Positions 17,976 to 42,710 of a stretch of DNA of 64,000 nucleotides are shown here, one piece after another. Every line of letters starts with the position of its first letter. Position 1 is the first letter of the stretch. Source of the DNA: a virus; the UHGV virus genome UHGV-0020835; one strand, given 5' to 3'. A program made the position numbers and the translations under genes. The notes below the pieces were generated by a model that was not told the origin of the DNA, did no database searches, and saw only the letters and a program-made list of their open reading frames with translations.

Positions 17976-20900
17976 CTATCTGAATGCGATGTAGAATCGG
18001 ACAAGGCCTCTGTCGTTGATGCGGTTATAGCCGTTTCCACTGATTTTGTGGACAGCGAAGCCGGTTTCCGTCAGCTCCAGCACCGGCGCGCCGCCGCTGG
18101 TGACCGGCTTGCCGGGCAGGGCAAGACCGCCGTGGATGACGGGCCACGAGCCGGTCTGATAGCCCGTCATGGCGTCGGAGCTCACCACCAGCACCGCCCT
18201 TGGCTGGAACCCCAGGTCGATGTTCTGGGTCTCCGCGTCGTCGCCGGTGTAGCTGCCGGTCACCGTAGCTACCCGCTGATAATCCCACCACGGGAATGCA
18301 GACAATACACCGTCCTGCGGAACGTATCCCTGTACTCCGTCGCTTGTGATGTTCGTGCCAACGGCCAGCCCAGAAGTCTCAGCCACTCCCGCAAAGAGAA
18401 CATCGCAGTTTTGCCCAGCGGAAGCGGAAGTAAGAGCGATTGCGTCTTTGGATGAGATTACCCATCTTCCCGCAATCTGCCCGTTGTTGAATTCAAGCGT
18501 TGTAGCATAATAATTATTTGAATAGTTCCCGAAAAGAAACACACGTTTATTATCCAGCTGAGTACCAAATACAGGGTATCCACTGCTGAACACCGCAACA
18601 TCCATTTGTGTGCCTAGCGAAGCTGCTAGATTATCAATCTGAATTGGAAACACACTTGAAGAGAAGGCGATCAGCATCTCCCCGTTAAATGTAAATACTG
18701 CTGTGGAATGACTAGGCACAGATGCAAGCAACTGTGTTTTTGTCCCGGCTGAAATCGCGTTACCAGAGATAGTACAAGCATACCCATAGAAGATATCGCT
18801 GTTGATATACCCAACAAAGACATCCGTGCCGTTCACGCAGCAAAACGGCGTACAGCTGACCGATTCCAGCAACTGAGTTGCACCGAAAGATGCAGTTCCT
18901 GCCTCATCCACATTTACGATAGCGCAAAATAGTTTGCCCGCCGAATTTGTAGCGGCAACAAAAACTTTTTTGCCGGAGATAAGTTGTGCATCTAAAGTAC
19001 TGATATTGTAACTGCCAATATTCGAATCTGGTATGAGATTCTGAATTGTTCCCGGCGTAATTGTCGTTCCGGAAATGGAAAGATGTTGTACAGGAAGACC
19101 ACCCACGTTGTATAGGCCAAACACGACAAGAACACTTGTATTAGAAAAACGGATCAGCTTTACCTTGTCGTACTTACTTGAGCTTCCCCCAACGTTAAGT
19201 TGAACCTTTGCCCCCGGAGTAATTGTTGTTCCAGATATAGTACAGACCCAAGCAAAGTCTCCTTGATTAGAACGGGCTACAACAACAAACCTTAAGCTGT
19301 CCAATGCCACGATCCCGAAGGGTTGTGTGGCGTAGGAGGTGTCGCTGAATTCCTGGGTTGCAATAATAGACACTGGCTTTATGCTGTCGGTTACACGGAA
19401 CAGGGTAATTGTATAGTAGCCTGTAGACCTGTCTATCGACATAGTTACGCCTGTTTCTGCGCTCAACATACACGAAAGCATTGTATAACCATTAAGCAAC
19501 GTCGGTTCCACATTTTCCGCTCTAACTTTCTTCACAAGCTCCCCGTCCACCACATCCACCACGTCACCCACGGCGATGCTCTGGCCCGCTGCTGCGGGGT
19601 AGGTGCCACGGACGGCCTTACTGCGGTCTTTGAGGCCGTTGTCCACGTAGCTTTTCGGTGCCGCGTCGGTGTCAGCCTCCGGCGTGGGGAGATTCTGGAG
19701 CTTCTGGCCGCCCATGTCGAGATTTCCGGTCATCGTCCCGCCGGATTTGGGGAGCTTCGTGTCGGCATACGCCTTGATGCCGCCAGCCGTTGCCACGTCA
19801 CCGTTTGGATCGTATACAGATTTAAGCATATCACCAGACCCAGCCGCACTCAATGCGTCACTAACGGCTTTTTCACTCGGCACCTTGGTTGCACTTGTTC
19901 CAAGAGTTGTAGTGATATCGGATGTGGATACAGCGCCTACATCGCTTGCCCCTAATGTGACCACCCCTGTTTTGTTATTGATAGAAGTAACAGGTGCGAT
20001 CTGTAAGGCGGTATCTGCTTTGTCAAGTGATGCTTGCACATCGCCCGATAAATCGCTTTTAGCCACGCTTGACTTAAATGCCAAACTGCCAAGGTCACTA
20101 AACCACTTGGCGATTTTGCCGAATATAGTAGATAATTTTTCGCCACTTGAGATATTGGTTCGGCCTGATGCTTGGGAGAAAGTTGAAGCTGTATTGTCTA
20201 CATTGCCATATATGTGCTGCGCTCGGACTTCCTTCCACTGAGCGAGATACGTCCCCAATGACACCGCGCCGGTTTTGTATGGTGACAAGTCACCGTACAT
20301 TGTACTGCCGCCACGGTTAACTAATGTTCCTTCAATACCACCAGAAATACCCGTGAACGCAATTTGCGTTGCCGCGAGCCAACCATATTCTTGAGTAGGT
20401 TGAGCACGAAATGTTATTCGAAAACGTTTCCCAGTCCCGTTAACCTGTACCCCCATATACTGTGTGTTTACAACTTCATCGAAGGGGATATTATCCCGCT
20501 CAGCTACAAAAACGTATTGGTCAGCAACAGAATCATAAATTTCAATCTTATAATAACTACAATTTTGCTTGGCCGCGCGCCAATAAAATGACACGCCGTT
20601 TTCCCACTTTAACACCAAATTCGAATCAATCACAATAGAAACTTTAAGGTTTTTGACATCCATCAAAAGCGTATCATGGGCAGTTGATACATCTTTCCAC
20701 GCCCCGGTAGAATCACCTTCCGGTATTACACCTTGGGATCCTTTCAGTGCCTTATACCATCTAAAAACGCCGGATGCGGTTTGGTACATAACACGGGCAT
20801 TTTGCGGATAATTACTTGTTTCACTCCACAAACAAACAGTTTGTGCATGGCTTGGGCCAGCACCAAAGTTAATATATGTGCTGGATTTTCCATCAAATAA

Positions 20901-21986
20901 AGTATCAATTTCCTTGTCTGTAAAAGGCATAAGATACCCATCATAAAAAATCTGTGCGTTGCCGCCATTGTACCGGAGAAAACCCAGCGCATTTACTGCT
21001 GGGTTGATGGATACGGCATCTACATTATTGATAATACTATTAATGCCACCCCGTAAACGGACCGCTTGAATTTCATCATTAACACCCTGTTTACCATCTA
21101 ATTGTGTCTGTACCTTACTTGTTACGCCACCAAGATAACCCAACTCAGCAGATGTAACCGTACTCGCCTCGACCTTGCCACTACCATTAGACACCAAAGC
21201 ATGATTGGCAGTAAGATTATTGTCTGTAATGGTGCTTGCGCCACCCGTAATCGTATCTTGTTTGCCTCCGAGCGCATTAGTTAATGTAGTAACGTCACCC
21301 TTAAGTGTCGTAATATCAGACTGAGCCGTTTCCATATCAGAATCAAGCATAACAATATTATCTTTATTAGTATCAATTTGTTTCTTGGCCGAATCTGTAA
21401 AATCATTATGAGTACGCACATAAGTTTGCCCATCACTAACATCATCTTGAGTTAAAACAACTGCGCCAGTCTTGCCGTTAACTGACTTAACGGGAATATC
21501 ATTAGTAGTAATATAACCGCTGTCGTTTATAATTTCAGAGGTCTTGGTAGGAATATCTATGGTTTTTGCATAACCGCCCAAAGCATCGCTATTGACAAAA
21601 CCAGAATCGTTTTCAAGTTCACTGGTCTTTGTGGGGATTACAGTTGTGCTAGGTAAAGCGCCTACGTCATTAGCATTAAGAATAACACTACCGGTTTTGC
21701 CATTAACACTTGAAACGCCCGTTTCTGGTGTTTCTCCCCCACCCCCAGGAACAATAATAAAAGCCGCAGACATATTACCAAATGGCACAAACACTTGGTA
21801 AATAGAACCAGTAAGAGGTGTGCCGCCATAATATTTTACAGTATTATCTTTTCCGTTGATTGTCAAAACGCACGTTGAAGTAGCCACAGTTTTACACACA
21901 CCAGAATAAATTTTGGTTGTATTATCTTCTACTACATGATTAACTATAATTTCAATGGCATCTAAAATCTCGTTAGTAATATTCAA
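17976..21986 (-). CDS. large tail fibre protein (1336 aa) with Phage_fiber_2 repeats and a high-GC C-terminal (distal) domain
   Basis: Repeats DIPTKTSELENDSGF, LPKSGGTMTGNLDMGGQKL..AAPKSYVDNG. The last ~170 codons are ~60% GC. Confidence 0.65.
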   Translation of the reverse strand: MNITNEILDAIEIIVNHVVEDNTTKIYSGVCKTVATSTCVLTINGKDNTVKYYGGTPLTGSIYQVFVPFGNMSAAFIIVPGGGGETPETGVSSVNGKTGSVILNANDVGALPSTTVIPTKTSELENDSGFVNSDALGGYAKTIDIPTKTSEIINDSGYITTNDIPVKSVNGKTGAVVLTQDDVSDGQTYVRTHNDFTDSAKKQIDTNKDNIVMLDSDMETAQSDITTLKGDVTTLTNALGGKQDTITGGASTITDNNLTANHALVSNGSGKVEASTVTSAELGYLGGVTSKVQTQLDGKQGVNDEIQAVRLRGGINSIINNVDAVSINPAVNALGFLRYNGGNAQIFYDGYLMPFTDKEIDTLFDGKSSTYINFGAGPSHAQTVCLWSETSNYPQNARVMYQTASGVFRWYKALKGSQGVIPEGDSTGAWKDVSTAHDTLLMDVKNLKVSIVIDSNLVLKWENGVSFYWRAAKQNCSYYKIEIYDSVADQYVFVAERDNIPFDEVVNTQYMGVQVNGTGKRFRITFRAQPTQEYGWLAATQIAFTGISGGIEGTLVNRGGSTMYGDLSPYKTGAVSLGTYLAQWKEVRAQHIYGNVDNTASTFSQASGRTNISSGEKLSTIFGKIAKWFSDLGSLAFKSSVAKSDLSGDVQASLDKADTALQIAPVTSINNKTGVVTLGASDVGAVSTSDITTTLGTSATKVPSEKAVSDALSAAGSGDMLKSVYDPNGDVATAGGIKAYADTKLPKSGGTMTGNLDMGGQKLQNLPTPEADTDAAPKSYVDNGLKDRSKAVRGTYPAAAGQSIAVGDVVDVVDGELVKKVRAENVEPTLLNGYTMLSCMLSAETGVTMSIDRSTGYYTITLFRVTDSIKPVSIIATQEFSDTSYATQPFGIVALDSLRFVVVARSNQGDFAWVCTISGTTITPGAKVQLNVGGSSSKYDKVKLIRFSNTSVLVVFGLYNVGGLPVQHLSISGTTITPGTIQNLIPDSNIGSYNISTLDAQLISGKKVFVAATNSAGKLFCAIVNVDEAGTASFGATQLLESVSCTPFCCVNGTDVFVGYINSDIFYGYACTISGNAISAGTKTQLLASVPSHSTAVFTFNGEMLIAFSSSVFPIQIDNLAASLGTQMDVAVFSSGYPVFGTQLDNKRVFLFGNYSNNYYATTLEFNNGQIAGRWVISSKDAIALTSASAGQNCDVLFAGVAETSGLAVGTNITSDGVQGYVPQDGVLSAFPWWDYQRVATVTGSYTGDDAETQNIDLGFQPRAVLVVSSDAMTGYQTGSWPVIHGGLALPGKPVTSGGAPVLELTETGFAVHKISGNGYNRINDRGLVRFYIAFR

Positions 21987-22026
21987 TAATCAACACCTCC
22001 TTTTATTTATATAAGAGGGCGCATGA

Positions 22027-25000
22027 TTACGCCCTCTTATATGCACGTTGATAAGCAAGATTCTTTAACCCGGCCACTAAAGATTCAGCATCTCGCGCAT
22101 TAGGCAAAGACAAATTATCAATATTAAAGATTTGAGTATTACTCTTATTGCTTAACACTGTAGGATCAATCTTGCCCCAATTCCACAAGTTTCTTGTAAC
22201 ATCGGCGGGAATAATACTGTCTCCATTACCAAGAACTCTTAACTCAGGCCCCTGCTCACCAACAAGACTCAATCCACCAGTTGCGCCTAATGTACCATCC
22301 GCATGCCCTGTTAATTTCTTAATAACAGAAGTAATACCAGAAATAACGGCGCTGACAGCAGATTTGGAGCCGGAGTCAGAGGACGAACCGCCCTTAGATG
22401 CGCTAACTGTTGGTGTCTTTGGGATGTATTGACTACCATCGGCACCGCCACTATAACCGTACTTATTTCTAATGGCTTCTGCCCTTTGGTGAGCCTCTAT
22501 TCGCTCTTCATCAGTTTTAGCGTTAGCAAAATCTTGCTTGGCCCGTTGAATTTCAGCTAAATCATATCCGCTAATACCACTACTAGCGCCCTTATATCCA
22601 CCACCGGCTTCGCCAGCCGTAGGCACCATATTCCCGACAGCAGTAATTTCAGACATAATACCGGTATACTCATTAGCAAATTTTTTGGCTTGGCCTAACC
22701 GAATGGCCCAATTATCGCCTTCCAGCTTAATGCCGAGCGCCTGTTCAGCAAGCAATCTATTCTGCTCTCTAGTGTATTGCTGAGTTACATCGGCCCATTC
22801 CTCTCTATATTTCTGCCACCAATCAATTTGCGTCTGAATGTTTTCAACTGCCTCGTCTTTTAAAGCCTCAAGACGCTTAGTTTCTTCTTCAAGCGCCTTT
22901 TCGCGGTTATAAGAATCAAGTTCGCTTTGCGCCTCAGCAATAGCCTCTACATCCTGTACATACTGGAATTGACCATCTTTAAACACATAGAGCTTTTTAC
23001 TCTTGGCCTTGGCTAAATTGTCTAATAATTGCTGATACTTAATCTGGTCTTCAAGTAGGCCGTTTTCTTCGTTTAGTTTATCAATTTCATCTTGCCATTT
23101 TTGTTCTTCTTCGGTTTTTTGCTTTTCAAGAGCCTCAAGCCGTTCATCGATACGGTCAACCATATAACTAGATGCGGCTTCATAAGCGTCTTTGCGCTCA
23201 TTAAGAGCTTTTTCCCAAGCCTCTTTCGCCTCTTCTGCGGCTTTCTTTTCTTCTTCGGCTTGCTTTTCGGCGGCTTCTTTCGCCCTTTTCTCTATCTCAT
23301 CATAGATTTTATCTATGTCATTTTGATAATCCCACCAAAGAATCTTTAGTTGGCGCACTTGCTCAGAATCTTCAGAAAGCCCCAGCGCACGATATTTATT
23401 GGCTGTGGCATGAATGGCCTCTTGAATCTTTTTCATTTGGGATACTTGCTCTTCTTCAGTCGCACCAGACTTTTCTAGCAATTCAAGACGGTCTTTGAGG
23501 AGACTAAGTTGCTCTTTCCATGCTTCAGTTAGTTTCTCTACAGCGGTTTTTTCTTTCGTGGTGGAAGAACGAGAACCCGAAGAACCACCGCCACCCCCTG
23601 TTACAACATCGTTGTCTGTTGTAACAATGTCAGCTTCCGCTAACTTTTTTCTATAAGGTGCAAGCCAAGTATTCCACTTTATTTGCAAATACGCTTGTTC
23701 AGCTTCAGCCTGAGACATACCACTATTCATCAATTGACGATAAGTGGGATCATTCACCAAGCCACCATTTGAAATTCCGGCGAGGGCACCTTGAACACCA
23801 AAAGCCATTTCAGCCACTTGCGCCAATGCCGCCACTTTTTGAGAAACATCAAAATCAGTATTATTAAAAACAATAGATTGATATATAAGATCTATCATTT
23901 TCTCTTTAGTAATACCTAATTGGCCTGCCTCATTAATCAACTGATTCGCTAAAACAGCTGCAGCAGGTGCCGTTTGTGCTTGAGCAATTCTTAAATCAAC
24001 CGTCTTTTGAGCCACTTCTTCGGTTGTGCCGACAATATCAATAAGCTGATACCAAAGATCTCTTTGAGTATCATCCATCTCAGCGCCATCAGCAACCGCT
24101 TGTTGCCCTACTGCGTGATATTCTTCAAAAGTACCGACTAGTTCATTTAATTGCTCTTTAAGTTTCTCAAACTCTTCTACACTGGTGGCCTTTTGCATCG
24201 CTTCTTTTAATTCATAGAACTTATCTATCTGTCCTTGAATAATTAAAGATTGCGTTGCCCACTCTTTACCGCCATAGCTAACAGTCGGTTGTGTCGTTGC
24301 GTTGCCAAAAGTTAAGTCGAATCTCTGTTGGTTAAATTCTGCTAGTTGCTTCTGCAAACCCTCTAATTTGTCACTGTACATATCAATGACATTTTGATTT
24401 GCGCCCTGTTCTTTGAGTTCTTGAATCTTTTGTTTGGTGCTCTCTATCTCAGCGTTAACTTCGCTAATTTTATTCTTAACATATTCTGCACCATTAAATG
24501 TTTTTTGGAACCAGTCGGTTTTAGAAAAAGCATATAGACCAACGATAGCCGCAGAAATTGCTAAGAGAATAGGCAACACTGCCCCAGACGCTCCTTGTAA
24601 AAGTATAAACGCGTCGCTTAAAGAGTGAATACTCGTAATCAGCTTTCCCGCCGCAAACACATCTTTAAGATTTTTAAATTGCTGAACAATTGTTGAGATA
24701 ATACCAGTTGCGTGTGCCAAAGAAGTTGCTCCCCAGCCCAAGCTTGTCAACAACACAATTTGAGATACAATCGTCCCAAGAGGAGTACTAGCAATTTGCA
24801 ACAACGATTTCGCAATGCTAAGTAAGCCATTAACCAAGCCACTATCAAGAACATTGTTAGCAAATTGTTGAAATTGGGAACCCAATTGAGATAAGTGCGC
24901 TTGAACGGACTCCATATAAGAAGCATTCTCGTTTAACGCAGAACCTTGTGAATTAAGCGCTGTATTGGTTGCTTCTGTTGCGTGATCAAAATTGTTCATT

Positions 25001-25617
25001 AGCGCCAGGAAATTATTAAGCTGAGTTGTACCCGCTAGAGTAGTGGCAATATATTTTTGAGTGTTGCCGTCTAATCCATCCCATTTTTCCGCCAATTCAC
25101 CGAGCAATTCATAACTACTTCTTAACTGTTCCTCGTTATCGTACATTGAAACATTGAGGTCATCAAAAATCCGAATAATTTTTTCGCCGTTTGACGAGGC
25201 AGGATCCAAAACCTGACTAAGGTTTGCAAAAATAGCGTTAAGCCCCCGAGAGGCCTTGCTAGCATTTTTTGTTTGTTCGGTAATTGCGGTAAGCATACCA
25301 ATTGTAGATTCCAGAGAATTGCCCATTGAAGACGATGTAGAAGCCACAATCTTTAAACCAGTCGCTAAATCACCTGTACCAACAGCAAAATTGTTTGCCA
25401 CAGAGTTGACCGCATCTATAATATGAGTTGCATTTGCTTCAACATCACCCGTGGTTTGATTAAATGCAATTAACTGAGAAATTAAAAATTCAGCAGAATC
25501 GCCAGCGGAAATAGTTTCATCTGCCACATTCTGGAACATTGAGCTAACACGAGCTAGCGATGCAGCATCTTCATCGTTGAAGCCATTTTTACGGAAGTTG
25601 GTTGCCGCGTCAACCAT
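22027..25617 (-). CDS. tail tape measure protein (main body)
   Basis: 1196 aa. PhageMin_Tail-like N-region, long coiled-coil and charged repeats (EEAKKAAEE...), glycine-rich C-terminus. Confidence 0.7.
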   Translation of the reverse strand: MVDAATNFRKNGFNDEDAASLARVSSMFQNVADETISAGDSAEFLISQLIAFNQTTGDVEANATHIIDAVNSVANNFAVGTGDLATGLKIVASTSSSMGNSLESTIGMLTAITEQTKNASKASRGLNAIFANLSQVLDPASSNGEKIIRIFDDLNVSMYDNEEQLRSSYELLGELAEKWDGLDGNTQKYIATTLAGTTQLNNFLALMNNFDHATEATNTALNSQGSALNENASYMESVQAHLSQLGSQFQQFANNVLDSGLVNGLLSIAKSLLQIASTPLGTIVSQIVLLTSLGWGATSLAHATGIISTIVQQFKNLKDVFAAGKLITSIHSLSDAFILLQGASGAVLPILLAISAAIVGLYAFSKTDWFQKTFNGAEYVKNKISEVNAEIESTKQKIQELKEQGANQNVIDMYSDKLEGLQKQLAEFNQQRFDLTFGNATTQPTVSYGGKEWATQSLIIQGQIDKFYELKEAMQKATSVEEFEKLKEQLNELVGTFEEYHAVGQQAVADGAEMDDTQRDLWYQLIDIVGTTEEVAQKTVDLRIAQAQTAPAAAVLANQLINEAGQLGITKEKMIDLIYQSIVFNNTDFDVSQKVAALAQVAEMAFGVQGALAGISNGGLVNDPTYRQLMNSGMSQAEAEQAYLQIKWNTWLAPYRKKLAEADIVTTDNDVVTGGGGGSSGSRSSTTKEKTAVEKLTEAWKEQLSLLKDRLELLEKSGATEEEQVSQMKKIQEAIHATANKYRALGLSEDSEQVRQLKILWWDYQNDIDKIYDEIEKRAKEAAEKQAEEEKKAAEEAKEAWEKALNERKDAYEAASSYMVDRIDERLEALEKQKTEEEQKWQDEIDKLNEENGLLEDQIKYQQLLDNLAKAKSKKLYVFKDGQFQYVQDVEAIAEAQSELDSYNREKALEEETKRLEALKDEAVENIQTQIDWWQKYREEWADVTQQYTREQNRLLAEQALGIKLEGDNWAIRLGQAKKFANEYTGIMSEITAVGNMVPTAGEAGGGYKGASSGISGYDLAEIQRAKQDFANAKTDEERIEAHQRAEAIRNKYGYSGGADGSQYIPKTPTVSASKGGSSSDSGSKSAVSAVISGITSVIKKLTGHADGTLGATGGLSLVGEQGPELRVLGNGDSIIPADVTRNLWNWGKIDPTVLSNKSNTQIFNIDNLSLPNARDAESLVAGLKNLAYQRAYKRA

Positions 25618-25632
25618 TTCTGACGTTTCATA

Positions 25633-25986
25633 TTAACGCTTCTTTTCTGTAAATTCAATCGTGCCTTTTTTATTCTTTTCTTTCCGCCCTCTAACAAAAT
25701 TACGATAGTGTTTGGTATATTCGTTTTCAGACTCAATCCTCTTCTGAACATCGGCAGCGTTTGCTTTTTCTCCATCAATAAACAGCAAATTCATAATAAT
25801 AGCGATAAAAACCCACGCGCAAAATGCAAGAACGAACTCATCACACTGTGCGCCACATACCATAAACAGAATAAAGATAGCAATATTCAAAATCACCTTA
25901 CCGAATTTACCATTACTAGTAAAAAGCAAACCAATTAAATAAAACATACCATACACAATACCAACACACGCGGCGATAAAAATCAT
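25633..25986 (-). CDS. small membrane protein (117 aa, 2-3 TM) expressed from its own promoter; moron-like
   Basis: Internal start MIFIAACVG with RBS aaaaaggagtgttaaatATG. Hydrophobic helices, basic C-terminal tail. The track ORF 25633..26094 extends over the promoter. Confidence 0.5.
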   Translation of the reverse strand: MIFIAACVGIVYGMFYLIGLLFTSNGKFGKVILNIAIFILFMVCGAQCDEFVLAFCAWVFIAIIMNLLFIDGEKANAADVQKRIESENEYTKHYRNFVRGRKEKNKKGTIEFTEKKR

Positions 25987-26016
25987 ATTTAACACTCCTT
26001 TTTGCTTTGTGAGTGT

Positions 26017-26045
26017 ATAATAACATAACAGAAAAGATTTGTCAA
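26017..26045 (-). promoter_or_regulatory. sigma-A-type promoter (TTGACA-N17-TATTAT) inside the tail module, driving the membrane-protein gene
   Basis: Minus strand: ttgacaaatcttttctgttatgttattat. Confidence 0.55.
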
Positions 26046-26299
26046 TACCTAAACCAAAGTTTTTTAGACTTTGCCTGAGTAATTCTTCACCCATTTATTG
26101 GAGGGCCGCTCTGTATACTCGATTGACACACCGCTCATCACGGCTTCGCGCCCAATCTGCCCTTTTTAACAATACTTAGGTCTTTCGACCATATATCATC
26201 CTTACAGTTGTAATAGTTTCCCACATTCATATAAGCATATCTCATCTCATATTGTAGTTGTAAGGCTCTTGAGGCTTTCAAGGGTTTAGGAGCTGTTCT

Positions 26300-26683
26300 C
26301 TATGCACATTTACCATCTGTACATACGGGCTCAGACCGATTTGGTTTACCCGTGCGCCCTACTGTCAAGCCTATTTCAGATAATTTATCTACATAATCAT
26401 CTAAAGCAGCGCCTGACAAAGACGATACCTTCTTGTATTCAGTTAAAGCAGTATCAAGCTCTAATACCTGCTCCGCAAGACTACCAATCACCTCTGTTGC
26501 CTTAGAAAAGACTTCATTCGCGGTATTAAAATCGAGAGCTAAATCATTGATATCCTGACGCGCCTGTCTTACACTACTGCTATCAATATTAATTTTTGCT
26601 TTTTTGCTAACCTTATTTAATTGTTTTTCAATTTCTTTTGTTTGGAGTTCGACCCCCACAAGTATACTATAATTTGTAGCCAT
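26300..26683 (-). CDS. tape-measure N-terminal-like segment or tail assembly chaperone (127 aa)
   Basis: MATNYSILVGVELQTKEIEKQL... resembles TMP N-termini. Acidic and coiled-coil, which is also compatible with a gpG-like chaperone. Confidence 0.4.
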   Translation of the reverse strand: MATNYSILVGVELQTKEIEKQLNKVSKKAKINIDSSSVRQARQDINDLALDFNTANEVFSKATEVIGSLAEQVLELDTALTEYKKVSSLSGAALDDYVDKLSEIGLTVGRTGKPNRSEPVCTDGKCA

Positions 26684-26698
26684 TACCTCACTCCTTTA

Positions 26699-27220
26699 TT
26701 ACGAATTTGGTCGGCCTACATGTTTAATTTTAATTTGGCTATAAGCAATCAAAACAGCATCCGCAATATCATCTTCGTTTTTCGTTGAATAAGCTGACTT
26801 CCATGCTAGATTCATTCCAAACATTTTATTAACTTTTTCAACAGACTTGCGTTTCATTTCAGCCCGTTTTGTGCCTTCTCTTGTTCCATCAAACAATCCC
26901 AGCGGGCTACGCCATTCACTTGGAATTAAAAACATAATAGGCGTATTAAACGAGGCCGCAAGCCCGTAAAAAAATCCTTGCACAGCGCCCAACTGTACAA
27001 GGATTTTAGAATTCTGTGCTTTTAATGGTACGTCTTCCATATATATTTTATCAGGCCGATATTTAGTTAATATTTCTATCAATTTCGGTGCTTGATTCAC
27101 AATGCGCTCACGCCAATCTCGGCCATCGGGCTTAATTACCCCATAATCTATAAGGTCTTTATCTTTAAAAACACTAAATCCAGTGCTACAAGTGCTAGCG
27201 TCTATACCCATAACTACCAT
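26699..27220 (-). CDS. RuvC-like Holliday junction resolvase
   Basis: N-terminus MVVMGIDASTCSTGFSVF matches the RuvC catalytic start (MIILGIDPGSRVTGYGV). Confidence 0.6.
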   Translation of the reverse strand: MVVMGIDASTCSTGFSVFKDKDLIDYGVIKPDGRDWRERIVNQAPKLIEILTKYRPDKIYMEDVPLKAQNSKILVQLGAVQGFFYGLAASFNTPIMFLIPSEWRSPLGLFDGTREGTKRAEMKRKSVEKVNKMFGMNLAWKSAYSTKNEDDIADAVLIAYSQIKIKHVGRPNS

Positions 27221-27222
27221 AT

Positions 27223-27768
27223 CTATTTATCCTCAAAAGTCACAACTTTCAACGCAACGTGATTGCGTTTATAATTAACACCCTGTTGCCGCAAGCCTTC
27301 TTCAAATATTCTTTTAAAATTCTCTTTTTGCAAACGTTTAAGTAAGGCTTTCCATACATTGCGCTTTTTTGTCCACGCTTGGTCTTTAAACCTAGCAGAA
27401 TTTCTTGCATGCCCAGATTGATAAATCGCACCAGACAGGCCTTCATATATTACTTCGGCTAAATATGTTGTCATAGGTTGTCCATCAATTATAGAACCAT
27501 GGTGTTCCCCATCAACAGTCAACAATCTAGGATCATATTCAAATTTGCCTTCAACATAATTGCCAGTAGATTTAACTTGGGTGTCCCATGCCTCTTTAAA
27601 CTCCCCTGTACGCTCATATTGTTCAGGATAATAGGCCTCATATACAATCGTTCTTACAAGTTCTCTGTTTTCATTCCATATTTTCTGAACAACATAATCT
27701 ACAACATTTTTCAGAACGGGCATCAAAATAGCATTAAGTTCAGCATTATTTTTTATTTGATTTGACAT
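27223..27768 (-). CDS. hypothetical protein (possible tail assembly/completion protein)
   Basis: 181 aa. Its start overlaps the upstream ORF by 23 nt across an A-rich tract. Confidence 0.4.
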   Translation of the reverse strand: MSNQIKNNAELNAILMPVLKNVVDYVVQKIWNENRELVRTIVYEAYYPEQYERTGEFKEAWDTQVKSTGNYVEGKFEYDPRLLTVDGEHHGSIIDGQPMTTYLAEVIYEGLSGAIYQSGHARNSARFKDQAWTKKRNVWKALLKRLQKENFKRIFEEGLRQQGVNYKRNHVALKVVTFEDK

Positions 27769-28177
27769 TTTTATTCATTACGGCCTTAACCGCCTCACTA
27801 TTCATAACTTGAGGTAACTGGGCAAGAAACTTAATTCCTACTCTAGAAAAAGATTCAGTAAAACCAATGGCCTCATAAACCTGATTTAAATTTACAATTG
27901 TGCTATTAACTTCATCAATGAGGCCACTGGTTAATAGTACGTCATGCCCAATTTGTTCTAACATCTCTTTATTGATATTTGTAGCATGAAACAAAACCAG
28001 CATATCAATATTGGTTTGTCGTTCAGCCCAATTATCATTTTCTTTGCTAATTTTAGTTATAGCATTGACAATCTGCTGAATCTGAGCATAAGTTAGATAT
28101 TGCCGAATATCAATACCATAAGTATTGCTATGAACTACCTTTTCCTTTAACTCTACCATTCCATTCATTCCTTTCAT
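27746..28177 (-). CDS. hypothetical protein (possible tail assembly chaperone)
   Basis: 143 aa. Ends in ...NKNVKSNKK across the A-run. Confidence 0.4.
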   Translation of the reverse strand: MKGMNGMVELKEKVVHSNTYGIDIRQYLTYAQIQQIVNAITKISKENDNWAERQTNIDMLVLFHATNINKEMLEQIGHDVLLTSGLIDEVNSTIVNLNQVYEAIGFTESFSRVGIKFLAQLPQVMNSEAVKAVMNKNVKSNKK

Positions 28178-28181
28178 TCAA

Positions 28182-28583
28182 TCAAAATTTAACATATCGC
28201 GAAGCATATAAGATACCCATTCCCAAAACAACTACAATCCAAGGGAAATTATGCTTTAAATAAGCCCAAATATCAAACTTACCAACCTCTTCCAGAGTTG
28301 TCACCTTAGACTCAACAGTGCTTAACTTATCAGCCGTAGCCTTATTGGCTTTTTCAAAGTCTGCTTTCATTTCTTTCATTTCTCTTGCTTGTTCGTCCAT
28401 TTTATCATTCAACTTAACCATGGACATCTGTACATCTTGCATAGTCTGGGTCAAAATTTCATTGCTTTTGACACTACGCTGAATTAAATCTTGAAGAAAT
28501 GGCCGTGTACTTTCAAGCCGAATGATTCTGTGGTCATGGTCATCTAATTTTGCGTAAATTTTACTGGTCTCGCCCTCTGCCAT
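28182..28583 (-). CDS. coiled-coil protein with C-terminal membrane anchor (XhlA/holin-like?)
   Basis: N-terminal coiled coil; C-terminus FPWIVVVLGMGILYASRYVKF. Confidence 0.35.
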   Translation of the reverse strand: MAEGETSKIYAKLDDHDHRIIRLESTRPFLQDLIQRSVKSNEILTQTMQDVQMSMVKLNDKMDEQAREMKEMKADFEKANKATADKLSTVESKVTTLEEVGKFDIWAYLKHNFPWIVVVLGMGILYASRYVKF

Positions 28584-28593
28584 TATCGCTCCC

Positions 28594-28890
28594 TCACTCT
28601 CTTAATTTATATTCGCCGGATTTCATTTTCCTAACACGGACATAAAGAGGTGTGTGGTCAAATGGATTTTTTACCTTAATGGTTATGTCATTATAATCAA
28701 TATATAGCCAACCCTTGCGCTCATCTCTCACTCTGCAATACCCTATTGGGGTATTTGCTTGTTGCTTGACCTTACAATCGTTAGGCATATTGGGTGAGGA
28801 CTTAAAACCCTTAATCTTGTCACAGTAATACATATAAGGGCATACAGATTGGGTCACTCTACATTGATTCCCACTTACATATTCACACAT
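28594..28890 (-). CDS. Cys-rich hypothetical protein
   Basis: 98 aa with eight Cys (CRVTQSVCPYMYYCDK...). Confidence 0.4.
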   Translation of the reverse strand: MCEYVSGNQCRVTQSVCPYMYYCDKIKGFKSSPNMPNDCKVKQQANTPIGYCRVRDERKGWLYIDYNDITIKVKNPFDHTPLYVRVRKMKSGEYKLRE

Positions 28891-28901
28891 TTCTTACTCC
28901 T

Positions 28902-28940
28902 TAAAAAATTGGGAGGGAAGGTTATTCACCAACCCTCCCA
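28902..28940 (-). terminator. rho-independent terminator after CDS 28955..30019
   Basis: Hairpin gggaggg...ccctccc followed by a T-run on the minus strand. Confidence 0.5.
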
Positions 28941-28954
28941 AAAGAAAGATTAAA

Positions 28955-30019
28955 TTAAGCAGTAACAGTTACAGTAGCATAGGCGGGGGGCACGTTAGAA
29001 GCGTTCTTCAGAGTAACTTCAATAACAGCCGCACCATCAACAGTGCCAGCAGATACAACACCTTCGGCGCTTACAGAAACACCAGTAGCAGTGGCCGTGG
29101 GGTCGTTCACCTTGGTAAAGTTAAAGTTGCTGTTGCCCTTGCGCTGAGAAGCCATACCTTTACCAAATACGGCACGAACGATTAGAGCCTCAGTGTTATT
29201 CTGATTCATATCAAGGTCAGCATTTTCAATGGCCAAAGCGATAACGTCATCCTGCCACTTAGCGCCAAAAATCTCTTCGGTCATAGTGCCATAATAGGGA
29301 TCTTCTTCACAAGTATTGCCATCAAGCACGGCAAGAGCCATACCAGTCAAGTTAATAGTTGCGGCAGAAGTAGCAGTTAGAGCAAGATTCTGTTTACCCT
29401 CAAGCTGAAACTGAGGGATATCAACAATCAGACGGCCATAACGAGTAGCATCAGTCTGAGAGCCAACTTTGCCGCTATACAAGTCGGTCATAACAACCAC
29501 GTGCAGAGTAGAGGGCACATACTGAGACTTAATGGTAATGCTTTTAGCGTTCTCGTTTTGATAGAAATACTTAACACAATAAACCTGACCATCAATAGCA
29601 CCAGCGACGGCCATGGTCTTACCAGTGATGGTGCCAACCTGCCAATCATCATCAGTGGGCTTCTTATACCAACCAATCATAGTGCCGTCAAAAGCAACGG
29701 GAGTCTCGGTGACAGTAACAGCACCAGTAGCAGCAGTTAGTTCCTCTTCCTTGACAGAAAGGCCCCCAGACTCAATATTTACGCCCAAAGATAGTGCCAT
29801 GTAATTTAGGTCAAACATTGCATCTGTGAGAGTCGCGGTTAGAGTAGAGTCGTGGAAATAACGACCAAGTAAACCATTACCCCGTCCACCACGAATATCC
29901 TCCGCAATAATAGCAAAGTCGAAGGTACTCTCCGTCAGAGTTTTGGCATAACCAATTAGGTCATCACCCTTAAACAGTAGAGCGGTGCCCACACCAGCCA
30001 GAAAATGATTCTGTGCCAT
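28955..30019 (-). CDS. putative major tail protein with C-terminal Ig-like domain
   Basis: 354 aa. Strong RBS, biased codon usage, terminator downstream. C-terminal T/V/A-rich Ig-like segment. Confidence 0.5.
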   Translation of the reverse strand: MAQNHFLAGVGTALLFKGDDLIGYAKTLTESTFDFAIIAEDIRGGRGNGLLGRYFHDSTLTATLTDAMFDLNYMALSLGVNIESGGLSVKEEELTAATGAVTVTETPVAFDGTMIGWYKKPTDDDWQVGTITGKTMAVAGAIDGQVYCVKYFYQNENAKSITIKSQYVPSTLHVVVMTDLYSGKVGSQTDATRYGRLIVDIPQFQLEGKQNLALTATSAATINLTGMALAVLDGNTCEEDPYYGTMTEEIFGAKWQDDVIALAIENADLDMNQNNTEALIVRAVFGKGMASQRKGNSNFNFTKVNDPTATATGVSVSAEGVVSAGTVDGAAVIEVTLKNASNVPPAYATVTVTA

Positions 30020-30032
30020 ATAGTTTTCCTCC

Positions 30033-30899
30033 TTATTTATTTACAAAGTTATTGTATTGTTGAGACAAAGCGTCTCCTTGTTCAGTATTTGAAGTAACCT
30101 TTATAGCGTTTACATCGCCGCCCATAGATTGAGCATAGCTGTCGGCATCCGTCATATAACCATCATATTTATCTTTCTTCTTCTTATAAATCCAATGGTC
30201 AATTTCATTGCCCTTACCAGCATACAACAAAATAGGCCGAGTTGTTTCAAACTCAACCTCGCCATAGACTTCTTCAAATAACAGACTGTGACTTCTATAA
30301 GTCATATTCATTTGTTCTTGCTTACTTATCCCACAATGAGCCGTAATAATAGCCATACGCCTCTCAATACTTGGGAGTTCAATACCAGCATTCTTTACAG
30401 CATCCACTTCATTCATCATCTGTTTTATCTCAGGATTGATATATTCATCATCATAATGAATTAAATTCTGATACATGATGATCCTACGAATATTTTCAAA
30501 ATCCTTAGACTTAATCTCAATATCACTGTCTTTATCTCTTAAAAAAGGCTTGTTGTTAACATCATAGCCAATTTCAATAGCTTCATTTTCTATGTGCAAA
30601 CAATATTTAAGAATATTCAAAAATTTGCTAATATTCATTTGCTCTTGAAACAGCACCTTATAAATAAAATCAAGATAAGACATCTGGATAATCTCAACTG
30701 AATCGGTGGAATTTTTATCAATGCTAATTACCGACAAACTTGATAAAAAAATTTCACTATTTTTTACAATAATAGGATAAATAAGTAATATTTTATCTTT
30801 TATTTTATATTCAACAGGCAAGTCAAAGTAAAAATATGCTTTGCGATATAGGTCTAAATTAAGATTCGCACCCATACTCCTCACCCGTATCTCCAACAT
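30033..30899 (-). CDS. hypothetical protein, compositionally distinct (very AT-rich, K/I/N-rich)
   Basis: 288 aa at ~28% GC versus ~40% for neighbours. Confidence 0.4.
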   Translation of the reverse strand: MLEIRVRSMGANLNLDLYRKAYFYFDLPVEYKIKDKILLIYPIIVKNSEIFLSSLSVISIDKNSTDSVEIIQMSYLDFIYKVLFQEQMNISKFLNILKYCLHIENEAIEIGYDVNNKPFLRDKDSDIEIKSKDFENIRRIIMYQNLIHYDDEYINPEIKQMMNEVDAVKNAGIELPSIERRMAIITAHCGISKQEQMNMTYRSHSLLFEEVYGEVEFETTRPILLYAGKGNEIDHWIYKKKKDKYDGYMTDADSYAQSMGGDVNAIKVTSNTEQGDALSQQYNNFVNK

Positions 30900-31431
30900 T
30901 AACAGCTAAGAAAAGCTGAACGCCAGTAAATGTTTTAGAATTGCCAATAGTGGCACGGCCTAACGCATATCTTGACATATCATCAAGAAACGTTAATTTA
31001 CCAACGCCACCAACCTCAGCGCCATTCAACACAGTCATTACCTTGTTAATAAACAAATCACCCCTGCTAACAGGAATTCCATTATATTCTACAAGGCTCA
31101 TTTGGCCTCCATACAAAAAGTCAAACGCATATACTACTGTGCTACTATATAGCTCTTTGGCATGAATATAATAATCATAGATTTTCAGCACACACTTGCT
31201 TTCACAAATAGCGTCCTCTACAAGTGGCGTAAAGAATACACCAAATTTCTCTTGAGGCCCATTTCGCCAAATCAACTCTAATTTTTGATCAAAAGTCAAA
31301 TTGGGCTTGGATAGGGCATCATAACTATTATATTCCAACAATTTCCACAAATCTTCAGCCGCATCTTGACGGGCAAGATAAACAAGTATATCATAGGGAA
31401 TATAAGGCAAAGCCGATAATGAGTTATACAT
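30859..31431 (-). CDS. hypothetical structural protein
   Basis: 190-aa ORF overlapping the downstream gene by 41 nt. Confidence 0.4.
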   Translation of the reverse strand: MYNSLSALPYIPYDILVYLARQDAAEDLWKLLEYNSYDALSKPNLTFDQKLELIWRNGPQEKFGVFFTPLVEDAICESKCVLKIYDYYIHAKELYSSTVVYAFDFLYGGQMSLVEYNGIPVSRGDLFINKVMTVLNGAEVGGVGKLTFLDDMSRYALGRATIGNSKTFTGVQLFLAVNVGDTGEEYGCES

Positions 31432-31442
31432 AACTTACCTCC

Positions 31443-32744
31443 TTATCCCATCATGCTTACAGCTTGAATATCAAACTTGGCCGTTTTGCTGATATTATAT
31501 GTTTTATCAACAATAGTGACATTCATTGTTAAGGGCACGGTGCTCCGCTTATTACAAGTCAACTGCCAGCCAGACGTTATTTTCTCGACAGTTAAATATT
31601 CACTATCTACATTTATTCTAACTGTATCGGGCTTAATTTCTACGCCACCAATGGACACCTTAACATCAAATTCAATAGTTTGATATTCTCTAATCTTATT
31701 AAAAGCCGGATCAAGATAAATTTCAGGCTCAACAACTAGTTCACCAACAGTAATCTTAATGCTGTCTGTAACGGCCTCGTTACCAGTCAACACAACGGCA
31801 ATATCCGCACTCTGACCAACTTCGCCAACCACAGTATAATTACCGTTCTGGTCAATCATAACAATTTCAGGATTACTAGTTTGCCAAATAACAGGCCTAT
31901 TAACCTCTTTGCCATTTAACACAACATCAACAGTCAGAGCGCCAGTAGAGCCAGCACTTAATGTCATGTCAGCGGAATTAATTTTGACCTTATAGTTATA
32001 GTCCCCGTTATAAGCCACGCCATTAACCAAATCATCGCCATCATGAATCTCGTCCAAATACAAATCAAGATACAGCAAAGTATCATAATCTATAGTTAAG
32101 TTAAGATTCAGGGCATTTTGATAGCCATATAGCTTAAAAGGTCGGCCTCCAAGAACATATCTTGTGTTGGTCTTGAATAACCGCAATGTATTAGCATTAC
32201 CTTGTACCATAACAGTAGCATGGTTATTTGGTGTTAAGACATATCTGGACACCTGTACAGAAGGGCTTGACATATCATAATCTACCACGCAAGGAGCACT
32301 AAATACAGAGCCATTCTCAGGGTCAACGATTTTTAGAACGTTGTTACATCTTCTTAACCCAGCATCTTGAGCAATGCCACTAAAATGGCCAAATTCATTG
32401 CAAATCCACCAAGAATTGTAAAACTGGTAATACAAGCCACGAGGAACCACATGGTCAATATCACGAAAATAAATCTTGAGAAAATCGCCCGAATCTCTCA
32501 TACCAGTGGTCACATCACCAACAGTTGTCTTAACCCATGCGTCAATAATTTTGTATTCATCAGACCCGATTTCGGCCTGTTCTTTGATTTCTCCACCATT
32601 CTCAGGCGTTTTTGCGGCATTATTAATCCAAGACTGGTTAATAAAAGATTGAGCCAAATCCCGGTAATAATCGTTTGGAGTGGCCCCGCCAATAGTACTA
32701 TACTCGATAGGCATGACGATAGCCCTCCTTTTCTTTCTCAACAA
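31443..32744 (-). CDS. structural protein with C-terminal Big_2-like Ig domain
   Basis: 433 aa. C-terminus ...LTVDVVLNGKEV..SNPEIVMIDQNGNYTVVGEVGQSADIAVVLTGNEAVTDSIKITV. Confidence 0.4.
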   Translation of the reverse strand: MLRKKRRAIVMPIEYSTIGGATPNDYYRDLAQSFINQSWINNAAKTPENGGEIKEQAEIGSDEYKIIDAWVKTTVGDVTTGMRDSGDFLKIYFRDIDHVVPRGLYYQFYNSWWICNEFGHFSGIAQDAGLRRCNNVLKIVDPENGSVFSAPCVVDYDMSSPSVQVSRYVLTPNNHATVMVQGNANTLRLFKTNTRYVLGGRPFKLYGYQNALNLNLTIDYDTLLYLDLYLDEIHDGDDLVNGVAYNGDYNYKVKINSADMTLSAGSTGALTVDVVLNGKEVNRPVIWQTSNPEIVMIDQNGNYTVVGEVGQSADIAVVLTGNEAVTDSIKITVGELVVEPEIYLDPAFNKIREYQTIEFDVKVSIGGVEIKPDTVRINVDSEYLTVEKITSGWQLTCNKRSTVPLTMNVTIVDKTYNISKTAKFDIQAVSMMG

Positions 32745-32982
32745 GCTTAATCATGTGCAAGACCACACGCCGAACATCCTCTTGTTTGGCCTCATCGCCT
32801 AAATGAATAAGCCCTTTGATTAAATCACAGATTTCTTCATTGCCCCGCCCAATATACTGAATATATACTCGGCTCAAATAAGACCGATAACACTGCAAAG
32901 CAAAATCATCTTTTTCACGAATAGTCGCTTCAAAAAGGGGCAAAATTTTATAAATTCCATCTACCCGTTTATTCTGACTCAT
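32698..32982 (-). CDS. hypothetical protein
   Basis: 94-aa ORF overlapping the start of the 433-aa gene. Confidence 0.35.
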   Translation of the reverse strand: MSQNKRVDGIYKILPLFEATIREKDDFALQCYRSYLSRVYIQYIGRGNEEICDLIKGLIHLGDEAKQEDVRRVVLHMIKLVEKEKEGYRHAYRV

Positions 32983-32994
32983 ACCCCCACCGCC

Positions 32995-33426
32995 TTAAAA
33001 GCCGTAAGAATCAAGGTCAAGTAGTAGGTACTCTTGTGTTGCCCTATCGACTTCTTCTCTTAGCTTATCAATGACATTTTGCTTTTCCTTAAAATTCTGA
33101 GATTCACTATTATAAGAATACTGATTCTTAATACCCAGCTTTAGCGCAATCTGCGCCGCATTATTGTTTTCTCTTTCCCACCAAGCAATCACCCAATAAC
33201 GAGAAAGAATATAAATCTCAAGATTAGTTAAATCAACACCGAACTCACGAGTTTCAACGTTATAGGTTAGATCTTGCCGACATTCAGTAAATTGAGGAAG
33301 GGCGTTAAAAAGTAGGCCGTCACAGAATTTTTGAAAATTATCATAACTGTTCTCAAACAATTTAGAAATCTTATAATCTTCAACAATACTGAGGGCCAAT
33401 GTTTCAATCTGATCGAAACTTGTCAA
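32995..33426 (-). CDS. hypothetical head-tail joining protein candidate
   Basis: 143 aa, downstream of the capsid gene. Confidence 0.35.
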   Translation of the reverse strand: MTSFDQIETLALSIVEDYKISKLFENSYDNFQKFCDGLLFNALPQFTECRQDLTYNVETREFGVDLTNLEIYILSRYWVIAWWERENNNAAQIALKLGIKNQYSYNSESQNFKEKQNVIDKLREEVDRATQEYLLLDLDSYGF

Positions 33427-33439
33427 CTAACATCACCCC

Positions 33440-34081: not shown

Positions 34082-34111
34082 TTTATTTAATCTCCATTCT
34101 TTCCATTTAAT

Positions 34112-34141
34112 TCAAAAAAGGGGCCATATTTCAGGCCCCTT
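34112..34141 (-). terminator. rho-independent terminator after major capsid gene
   Basis: Hairpin ggggcc..ggcccc followed by a T-run on the minus strand. Confidence 0.55.
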
Positions 34142-34156
34142 AATAAAAGTTAAAGA

Positions 34157-35254: not shown

Positions 35255-35310
35255 ATTTATAATCTCCTTTATTATTTTATTTTAATCAGTTTGTTAGTTT
35301 ACTATTAAGA

Positions 35311-35802: not shown

Positions 35803-35828
35803 AATTAAATTTCTCCTTTATTATTTTA

Positions 35829-37397: not shown

Positions 37398-37425
37398 CTC
37401 ACCTCACTTCTTTATTAAGATTATA

Positions 37426-39684: not shown

Positions 39685-39707
39685 TTGTCACACTCCTTTC
39701 TTTTAGA

Positions 39708-41561: not shown

Positions 41562-41562
41562 A

Positions 41563-42519: not shown

Positions 42520-42710
42520 TATTCAATTGTAATTAAATACTGATAGTTTGGTTTTAGACCACTTGTCAGAGATATTGGATCACCATTCCTTTCATACTTC
42601 GACATTATAAGTCAATGGATGCAAAGTACAGTGTCCTCCTTCCTTTCGGAAATTTAGTTAATGTCTCACCTTTCGGCTGACAAGATATTCAAACCGCATA
42701 GCGGGATGAA

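Follow-up and report, generated by a model that had tools for sequence, protein, structure and literature searches.

The tape-measure protein (TMP) genes of Bacillus cereus-group prophages carry group I introns at three sites, belonging to subgroup IA1 or IA2 (Tourasse and Kolsto 2008, PMC2504315). In phage T4, RNA hairpins sequester the ribosome-binding sites of the intron-borne open reading frames (ORFs), and translation of I-TevI from the pre-mRNA impairs splicing (PMC3073962). The exclusion protein gp15 of HK97 is small and resides in the inner membrane; it is encoded between the chaperone gene and the TMP gene, and it acts in a way that depends on the tail of the incoming phage (PMC3594210). 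The element described here bears likenesses to each of these systems. It lies in the viral genome UHGV-0020835, of which a 64,000-nt stretch was analyzed; this whole stretch is called the window, and positions are counted along it. Judged from its sequence, the minus-strand segment 26347..25624 is very probably a self-splicing group I intron in the TMP gene, bearing a promoter-driven membrane-protein cassette and no homing endonuclease.

All the genes in question are read on the minus strand, which carries every gene in 17976..44628. Located 3' of a RuvC-like gene is a row of three ORFs of 127 aa (26683..26300), 117 aa (25986..25633) and 1196 aa (25617..22027). An initial annotation of this DNA had taken the first for the N-terminus of a TMP and the last for a TMP body that begins without the usual N-terminal segment, and both assignments are borne out. 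In tblastn comparisons with phage TMPs, the TMP N-termini align with residues 2-112 only of the 127-aa ORF, the matches stopping at 111-112. The 1196-aa ORF enters the Pfam domain PhageMin_Tail with its residue 2 at profile position 19, hence the start of the domain is missing. Fusion of the two restores a continuous PhageMin_Tail domain (profile 5-201, residues 102-310) that scores 84.5 bits, compared with 74.4 bits for the body alone. The length of the 127-aa ORF is explained by the exon 1 frame, which runs 15 codons into the intron and ends at a TAG (26302..26300) inside the P2 hairpin.

The exon boundaries were fixed by comparison with an uninterrupted homologue. Enterocloster phage PMBT24 has a RuvC gene followed by a single uninterrupted TMP gene (1508 aa). 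The PMBT24 stretch ...GLTVARTADEMVEAATEFKK... aligns without a gap with the window sequence ...GLTVGRTG plus SEMVDAATNFRK..., the splice product GLTVGRTG/SEMVDAAT (the slash marks the junction) facing GLTVARTADEMVEAAT and, in a shorter comparison, GRTG/SEMVDAAT facing ARTADEMVEAAT. Therefore, exon 1 ends with GGT (26350..26348) and exon 2 starts with TCA (25623..25621). Ligation of the exons gives a reading frame that is colinear with the uninterrupted homologues, as is expected of a group I intron. The alignment with intact TMPs that the initial annotation had proposed as a check thus shows its two ORFs to be contiguous, in PMBT24 as well as in other relatives. That annotation had also allowed that 26683..26300 might turn out to be an ordinary, separate chaperone gene; in PMBT24 and the relatives it is instead the N-terminus of one continuous TMP. 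Splicing would join ...ACGGGU to UCAGAAAUGG..., with ...GGGCGCACGGGU/UCAGAAAUGGUUGAC as the predicted ligated junction, producing an mRNA for a single TMP. The spliced protein is 1310 aa long; the splice point would fall between Gly112 and Ser113, and the junction-spanning part of the protein is predicted to read ...TVGR/TGSEMVDAATNFR. That the group I intron must be removed in order to make the TMP is well supported.

The same interruption recurs in related phages. A search of viral contigs with the fused TMP N-terminus yielded 18 loci, which were compared by tblastn. Thirteen of the 18 are interrupted at exactly the same codon boundary by homologous inserts of 584-645 nt, and one locus (L005) has an additional, second insert a few codons downstream of the first. 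The TMPs of L002, L010, L012, L016, L018 and L019, which are 39-42% identical, are uninterrupted at the residue-112 site. Further copies were collected with a 16-mer scan and an nhmmer profile, bringing the total to 53 distinct intron copies, all at the same TMP site. The related contigs, from human gut metagenomes, are roughly 80-100 kb long; none exceeds 102 kb, a size that fits a phage genome, and none lies within a host chromosome. Their neighbor genes match Pfam families named after SPbeta (YomU tube, YomW, YomX and YomN). Neither a blastn search with 2.3 kb nor tblastn searches with two ORF variants found a match in 50,697 deposited phage genomes. In 185,579 bacterial and archaeal genomes, a 16-mer scan gave at least 120 loci; among the matches listed none fits the intron profile, and all are chance matches. 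The intron element is known only from metagenomic contigs.

The inserts share about 300 nt of conserved non-coding sequence at their 5' end, and it is here that the ribozyme is found. The 5' exon sequence ACGGGU can pair with GCCCGU, 17 nt into the insert, to form P1, with a U.G pair at the junction. Immediately 5' of the P1 guide, UCUGA can pair with UCAGA, the first five bases of exon 2, to form P10; this pairing is found in the window and in most copies. At the splice site, 28 of 32 diverse copies have a U.G pair, two have C-G and two have C.A. The neighboring P1 pair (alignment columns 7/31) is CG in 28, UA in three and GC in one, a compensatory change that tracks the synonymous third base of a Thr codon. 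In each of the 14 copies whose ends were mapped, the terminal G directly precedes TC(A/G)GA(A/G)ATGG. The ribozyme from P1 to P9 (26347..26050) would fold in the late pre-mRNA, and the UCUGA-GCCCGU guide would align both exons.

The fold, in which P3 and P7 form a pseudoknot, was tested by explicit pair counting, with slid alignments and 500 shuffles as controls. In a set of 10 sequences, 96.1% of the cells are paired, and 20 pairs are changed on both sides as against 0-2 in the slid controls. The set of 32 diverse sequences gave 98.8% paired cells and both-side changes in 29 of 65 pairs, as against 3-7 in the slid controls. In neither set was the observed covariation score reached by any of the 500 shuffles. 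For example, the central P7 pair is AU in 18 of the 32 sequences, GC in 11, GU in two and CG in one. The coordinates of the helices are given in Table 1.

The sequence elements of a group I core can also be recognized. J3/4 is CUAAA; the J6/7-P7 segment UCAAUCGAGUA resembles the R element (Rfam consensus UUCAaAGACUA), and the J8/7-P7' segment GUGAAGAAUUACUC resembles the S element (Rfam consensus UgAAGAUAUAGUC). By eye, the R and S elements GUCAAUC-GAGUA and GUGAAGAAU-UACUC match the consensus forms UUCAaA-GACUA and UgAAGAUA-UAGUC, and the copy in L098 has the canonical P7, GACUA/UAGUC. The P4-P6 domain is homologous to that of an intron at a second TMP site in L025 (7207..7520; nhmmer E 5e-19). 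The Rfam group I model (Intron_gpI, RF00028) assigns this second-site intron 31.8 bits (E 2e-6), which is below the gathering threshold of 50. Two other assignments were tried and rejected. A topology with the helix 26265../26169.. as P4 and CCCUU/AAGGG as P3 leaves no room for the P7 strand, and class IA2, which is typical of phage introns, does not suit a core that has no P7.1/P7.2 and a J7/3 of 4 nt.

Table 1. Features of the interrupted TMP gene and its predicted intron (positions in the window)
Feature	Position	Strand	Sequence, basis and remarks
TMP exon 1	26348..26683	-	112 codons, ATG 26683 to GGT 26348; tblastn matches stop at 111-112; matches of relatives cover 1-112, then 113 onward past the insert
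Group I intron (predicted), 724 nt	25624..26347	-	first base after the U of GGU to omega-G 25624; PMBT24 TMP, P1/P10, same-site inserts, covariation
Internal guide sequence	26326..26335	-	UCUGA 26335..26331 (P10); GCCCG 26330..26326 plus U 26325 (P1); read from the sequence
P2 hairpin	26301..26325	-	near-invariant loop GAUGGUAAA; compensatory changes in 7 of 7 pairs
Ribozyme core	26050..26293	-	covariation
P3 (GCUC/GAGC)	26293..26290/26111..26108	-	covaries
P4 (CCCUU/AAGGG)	26284..26280/26164..26160	-	invariant
P5 domain	26265..26169	-	large, multi-helix
P6	26155..26123	-	two extensions; base invariant
P7 (GAGUA/UACUC)	26120..26116/26081..26077	-	pseudoknot with P3; covaries
P8	26106..26089	-	covaries
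J8/7	26088..26082	-	GAAGAAU
P9	26073..26055	-	all pairs covary
Promoter (predicted), sigma-A/sigma-70 type	26017..26045	-	TTGACA-N17-TGnTATTAT; inside the intron, just 3' of P9; 11/12 match plus TG
Leader hairpin (predicted)	25992..26016	-	ACACUC (26016..26011) pairs with GAGUGU (25997..25992)
Long-range P9.1-like helix (tentative)	26048..26041/25637..25630	-	5' strand GUAUUGAC, 3' strand GUUAAUAU; compensatory variants
117-aa membrane-protein gene	25633..25986	-	three hydrophobic helices; basic C-terminal tail ...YRNFVRGRKEKNKKGTIEFTEKKR
TMP exon 2	22027..25623	-	TCA GAA ATG ... stop; translation checked

The introns of the B. cereus group are similar in that they too interrupt a siphophage or prophage TMP gene, carry a P1/P10 guide fitted to the exon and occupy several sites per gene. 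Some of their copies are without a complete endonuclease, and the present family likewise has none. The differences are in the core and in the cargo. The B. cereus-group introns are of the IA1 or IA2 type with P7.1/P7.2 and are found by standard models, whereas the present ones have 4 nt between P7 and P3' and a very large P5 and are missed by RF00028. The cargo of the former consists of endonuclease genes or their remnants, that of the latter of a promoter-driven membrane-protein gene.

A rival explanation would dispense with splicing: an ordinary moron lies between separate genes, the 127-aa ORF encodes an independent tail or chaperone protein, and the TMP is translated from ATG 25617. Indeed, the three consecutive ORFs have their own start codons, ATG 25617 among them, the membrane ORF is equipped with a promoter and a ribosome-binding site of its own, and the G+C content of the cassette is below that of its flanks. 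This explanation is nevertheless very improbable. By homology, the 127-aa ORF corresponds to residues 1-112 of continuous TMPs, and it then continues for 15 unmatched residues of read-through; a Pfam domain broken off at the boundary is made whole when the two parts are fused. A moron would have no need for an insert with ~300 nt of non-coding sequence and compensatory changes, or for a guide sequence that covaries with the exon. Furthermore, no strong ribosome-binding site precedes ATG 25617.

The initial annotation had offered three alternatives, a moron, a TMP expressed in two pieces and an RNA-splicing element. Two of them appear to be true together, a splicing element that bears a moron-like, independently promoted membrane-protein cassette, with the splicing element strongly supported; the two-piece TMP is a reading that is not needed. 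It had rightly seen an insert but made it ~680 nt long, which is short of the 724 nt between the splice sites. Its GC-richer, possibly structured segment at 26100..26300 also stands, with the structured part extending over 26347..26050. Base composition sets the cassette apart, as in a moron: its G+C content is 34%, while that of the ribozyme core is 41% and that of the exons 38-42%.

The cassette begins directly 3' of P9 with the promoter. The near-consensus TTGACA-N17-TATTAT that had been read here earlier is present, with the added TG extension, and is the best promoter-like site in 21500..29000. By number, the promoter-like sites in this region are at chance level (21 found, 20.6 expected), and it is the conservation among homologous copies that places this one above chance. 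TTGAC(A/T) directly follows P9 in 53 of 53 distinct copies. In the 29 distinct leaders used to score the -10 box, the spacer is 17 nt long in 25 and TG stands before the hexamer in 27. A predicted promoter of its own, conserved in all copies, is a further moron-like trait of the cassette.

Between promoter and ORF lies a predicted leader hairpin. Its 5' arm, ACACUC, is the first six bases past the -10 box, and its 3' arm, GAGUGU, is made up of the 3' half of the Shine-Dalgarno sequence AGGAG and the spacer. Of the 29 leaders, 22 have a hairpin of 5 bp or more whose start is 1-3 nt past the -10 box and whose end is no more than 9 nt from the AUG, compared with 14% of shuffles. The arms covary (ACACUC/GAGUGU, AUAGAUAC/GUAUCUAU, AAUCAACC/GGUUGAUU and GUGCUC/GAGCAU). 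Bacterial transcripts usually begin ~7 nt past the -10 hexamer. Transcripts from the intron promoter, if started there, would lack the 5' arm of the hairpin and be translated, while on read-through pre-mRNA the ribosome-binding site would be occluded. Ribosomes would in this way be kept off a region that is needed to reach back to the core for choice of the 3' splice site.

The independent expression cassette would be housed in the terminal loop of a peripheral helix past P9. A candidate for this helix, in the clade to which the window copy belongs, is the long-range P9.1-like pairing of GUAUUGAC, which overlaps the -35 box, with GUUAAUAU, which includes the stop codon of the ORF. Relatives have compensatory variants (AAUUAUUGAC/GUUAAUAAUU, CUAUUGACA/UGUCAAUAG and UUUAGUCUUGA/UCAAGACUAAA). 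Tentatively, this helix would enclose the promoter-ORF cassette and bring the omega-G and 3' splice site to the core. Two plus-strand sites were also seen near this end of the intron. A promoter-like site with an 11/12 match (25395..25422) is in TMP exon 2, aimed at the intron, and recurs in about 5 of 42 relatives. A candidate plus-strand terminator (25607..25626) was rejected; it is a hairpin spanning the 3' splice site and is not conserved in relatives.

This arrangement is similar to that of the T4 td, nrdB and nrdD (sunY) introns, in which the ORF is in a peripheral loop and has an intron-internal promoter and a hairpin-sequestered ribosome-binding site, the last being a prediction in the present case. 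The sunY ORF is located near the 3' end of its intron, after the core. The T4 ORFs, however, encode homing endonucleases and use T4 middle or late promoters, whereas the promoter here is of the host sigma-A/sigma-70 type and drives a gene for a small membrane protein without a nuclease motif. Other group I ribozymes are also followed by a long non-endonuclease cargo ahead of the 3' splice site, namely those of the IStrons of Clostridioides and of the fungal mitochondrial rnl intron with rps3. Their cargo is a transposase/TnpB or a ribosomal protein, and they are not known to have a dedicated host-type promoter, a membrane protein or a link to phage tail genes.

The 117-aa product has three hydrophobic stretches, in agreement with the two- or three-transmembrane protein expected earlier, followed by a 44-residue C-terminal tail with 14 Lys or Arg residues. 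Its ORF stops 9 nt before the 3' splice site (9-25 nt among the copies). A 153-aa extended form of the ORF was rejected by position; its start (26094) lies in the ribozyme core, upstream of the intron promoter. A phmmer search of 1.84 billion representatives gave nine matches, seven of them small (93-126 aa), and a profile search of 5.8 billion proteins gave 109 clusters of 63-149 aa, none with a Pfam domain or an informative name. Every family member whose context was examined is encoded between the same ribozyme and TMP exon 2. Three members match PHROG 944, "membrane protein". No nuclease, holin, defense or toxin family of Pfam, PHROG or PADLOC is matched by the ORF family. In particular, no Pfam or PHROG nuclease family that would mark a homing endonuclease was found, and the products are membrane proteins of 58-132 aa.

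Family members consist of one to three N-terminal helices and a charged tail with a common C-terminal motif, ...YDNx(W/Y)-G-(I/Y)-(I/L)...; in the subfamily of the window protein, an RNYVKERKE..KK segment is inserted in this motif before GTIEF. The ratio of nonsynonymous to synonymous divergence (pN/pS) is 0.08 for the window ORF compared with the L021 allele (pS 0.34) and 0.06-0.23 across the intron ORFs (pS up to 0.5), which marks these ORFs as genes with a function, under strong purifying selection. Their divergence greatly outpaces that of the carrier: ORFs with an identity of only 17-33% are borne by ribozyme cores that are 89-95% identical. Each intron has one to three small membrane-protein genes, and where there are two or three, the tandem paralogues are translationally coupled. 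Tandem sets of two or three genes with overlapping stop and start codons (e.g., 64 + 66 + 89 aa) were seen in L057 and L080 (cassette positions 48..711 past P9) and in L124, L087, L069 and L112, and all of these genes end in a YDNxWG or WGKL-type motif. This shared C-terminal motif suggests that the gene was amplified inside the intron loop. That the cargo is an independently promoted gene under selection, encoding a predicted membrane protein, is well supported.

These features bear directly on the notion that the intron is a decaying relic, whose ribozyme still splices while the ORF is a functionless remnant of an endonuclease slot. The intron has no homing endonuclease and, in the Goddard-Burt cycle, the endonuclease is lost before the intron; at another TMP site, the related ribozyme of L025 precedes a 390-aa ORF. 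Yet a remnant would hardly retain a pN/pS of 0.06-0.23 at high synonymous divergence, a promoter, hairpin and ribosome-binding site conserved in the copies (the hairpin in 22 of the 29 scored leaders), and a C-terminal motif, YDNxWG or GTIEF, common to very divergent members, or be duplicated within its slot. The relic has barely any probability in our estimate.

Two other functions have been considered for the protein of a genuine intron. The first is lysis: the protein might act as a holin or antiholin, with either splicing or the intron promoter setting the time of its expression. The general shape would fit (small, with one to three transmembrane helices and a highly charged C-terminal tail), the tail genes of PMBT24 include one annotated "holin", and one of 20 family members matches Phage_holin_3_6 very weakly (E 0.09). 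However, no significant match to a holin family was obtained, and expression from a near-consensus host-type promoter with an extended -10 would be early or constitutive and, for a holin, lethal. The ORF has no endolysin gene next to it, the one cell-wall hydrolase noted in the window being encoded at 58849..59457, and arrays of two or three divergent paralogues fit a conflict gene better than a lysis clock. A lysis function is thus considered unlikely.

Alternatively, the protein might act as a toxin of type I toxin-antitoxin or addiction-like systems, penalizing loss of the intron or the phage. Type I toxins have a similar size and shape, a hydrophobic helix with a charged tail, and in many of their mRNAs a 5' hairpin occludes the ribosome-binding site, as is predicted here. 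SPbeta-type prophages are known to carry type I toxin-antitoxin modules. On the other hand, no conserved opposite-strand (antisense) promoter that could supply an antisense RNA was found across 42 copies, the plus-strand site in exon 2 being confined to about five of them. Many members are 80-130 aa long with two or three helices, above the typical type I toxin size, and the 5' arm of the hairpin sits where promoter-derived transcripts should lack it. These points make a toxin quite improbable.

A function in conflict between phages is suggested by the small inner-membrane product, its rapid diversification, the tandem amplification and the physical linkage to the TMP gene. The host-type promoter, in turn, suggests expression by unmodified host RNA polymerase, either early or from a prophage. 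By analogy with HK97 gp15, the cargo may then be a host-RNA-polymerase-expressed inner-membrane protein that blocks DNA entry by competing phages, which is our first guess among the functions considered and is offered tentatively. The exclusion benefit, not homing, would keep the intron in place. HK97 gp15 likewise is a small inner-membrane protein whose gene has its own promoter and lies in the tail operon right at the TMP gene. It differs in being intergenic, belonging to the YebO family and having a demonstrated function; the present gene is in an intron, its function is a guess and a prophage state is not established. None of 20 family members has a Pfam match that would place it in the YebO/gp15 family, the likeness being one of size, membrane location and position.

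Several observations count against the interpretation of this locus as a group I intron with a switchable, conflict-related cargo. RF00028 did not match the intron, either in 2.5 kb (E up to 1), in 401 nt (E up to 10) or in three homologous loci. The model has limited reach across group I subgroups, and the assignment was retained on the strength of P1, P10, the omega-G, the covariation and the homology to a paralogue that is weakly recognized. P4 and the base of P6 never vary; they fit the fold but lend it no covariation support. The P5 domain is unusually large and multi-branched, and a subgroup cannot be assigned. At the splice site (columns 10/28), four of the 32 copies replace the U.G pair by C-G (exon GGC; L036 and L101) or C.A (L055 and L114), and no obvious P10 is seen in L013-type copies. 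The duplex energies of the long-range helix are not significant overall (mean z -0.9). No minus-strand terminator-like site, as a moron might have, occurs in the 9-nt gap between the ORF stop (25633) and exon 2; therefore, transcripts from the promoter must continue into TMP exon 2. The logic of the hairpin and promoter as a switch is inferred and depends on a predicted transcription start. With respect to function, the window protein has no significant match to a Pfam, PHROG or PADLOC family (best PHROG E 0.04-0.08). The lysogenic-conversion or exclusion function that the initial annotation had suggested is plausible. The window has an integrase-family gene, but the related contigs are all of phage size, so that expression from a lysogen is not established.

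The surroundings of the intron have features of their own. The gene directly upstream of the TMP gene (26699..27220, minus strand) encodes a RuvC-like Holliday junction resolvase (Pfam RuvC; PHROG Holliday junction resolvase), and the order RuvC-then-TMP is also found in PMBT24 and all the relatives fetched. The slot upstream of a TMP gene is usually occupied by tail assembly chaperone genes. In this phage group the TMP gene is a hotspot for insertions; apart from the site at residue 112, there are inserts after residues ~187, ~221 and ~310 (fused numbering) in L001 (Thomasclavelia phage TR-TP1), L005, L009, L011, L017-L020 and L027. In the annotation of TR-TP1 the TMP is in three pieces with two "HNH endonuclease" genes between them. 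L005 has a 272-aa DUF2726-like ORF (a weak match) a few codons past its first intron, and L027 has a canonical Rfam group I intron (761..1034, 80 bits) 230 nt downstream of the residue-112 intron. A second TMP site, further along the gene, holds a related ribozyme that shares the P4-P6 domain (L025 7207..7520; L104 1399..1591), and L110 has several fragments of it (6035..6310, 8771..9204 and 9488..9611). The second-site intron of L025 has a canonical GACUA/UAGUC P7 and a P7.1/7.2-like insert, followed by the 390-aa ORF, which has no Pfam match.

Elsewhere in the window, the nrdD gene (1531..4557, plus strand) is also split: 1531..2820 corresponds to positions 2-266 of the NRDD profile and 3550..4557 to positions 263-562. 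The insert of ~730 nt contains a 174-aa ORF (2909..3433) in which VDHNDTIKNHN resembles an HNH motif and which matches NUMOD1 weakly. Part of it (3262..3569) gives a sub-threshold Rfam group I match (24.6 bits, E 6e-4) and has a canonical GGUGAAGAUAUAGUC element. It is probably a second, conventional group I intron that bears an endonuclease; nrdD is the host gene of the T4 sunY intron as well. Of the ThyX (Thy1) profile, only the final 50 positions are matched by the plus-strand ORF 5274..5813, which overlaps a dUTPase gene (5722..6255) and may be a fragment or another split gene. At 58849..62500 (plus strand) are the cell-wall hydrolase gene (58849..59457), two tRNA genes (60346..60420 and 60741..60813) and a tyrosine recombinase/integrase-family gene (61490..62500), a combination that may point to a temperate or plasmid-like lifestyle.

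Group I introns in TMP genes are already known, as are T4 intron ORFs with their own promoter and an occluded ribosome-binding site. The combination of cargo features seen here is unreported in the literature searched: in full text, including few subscription journals, no phage group I intron was found with a conserved non-nuclease membrane-protein cargo under a host-type promoter. Gene callers split the TMP into three "genes" and Rfam misses the intron, hence such elements are probably under-annotated in viromes. The intron family is also a natural scaffold for placing expression cassettes in phage structural genes.

In the common view, phage group I introns are selfish and owe their maintenance to homing endonucleases, and morons are additions between genes. 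The present ribozyme family, with 53 or more distinct copies in gut phages of ~80-100 kb that are related to Enterocloster phage PMBT24, combines a ribozyme with a promoter, a hairpin and a fast-evolving cargo. One possible, still speculative, view is that the intron lineage persists as a carrier of conflict genes rather than by homing. The ribozyme would offer a harmless landing pad within an essential tail gene, and its peripheral loop would have turned into a slot for cargo, fitted with a promoter of the host type and a switch for translation. From this slot, one to three rapidly diversifying membrane proteins would exclude competitors, perhaps by acting on TMP-mediated DNA entry, and the cargo and the TMP type would be inherited as one unbreakable unit. 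If the cargo does benefit the phage, a self-splicing intron lets accessory genes occupy essential genes at no cost, introns without an endonuclease can last over long divergence, and an accessory gene can be locked to one tape-measure allele.

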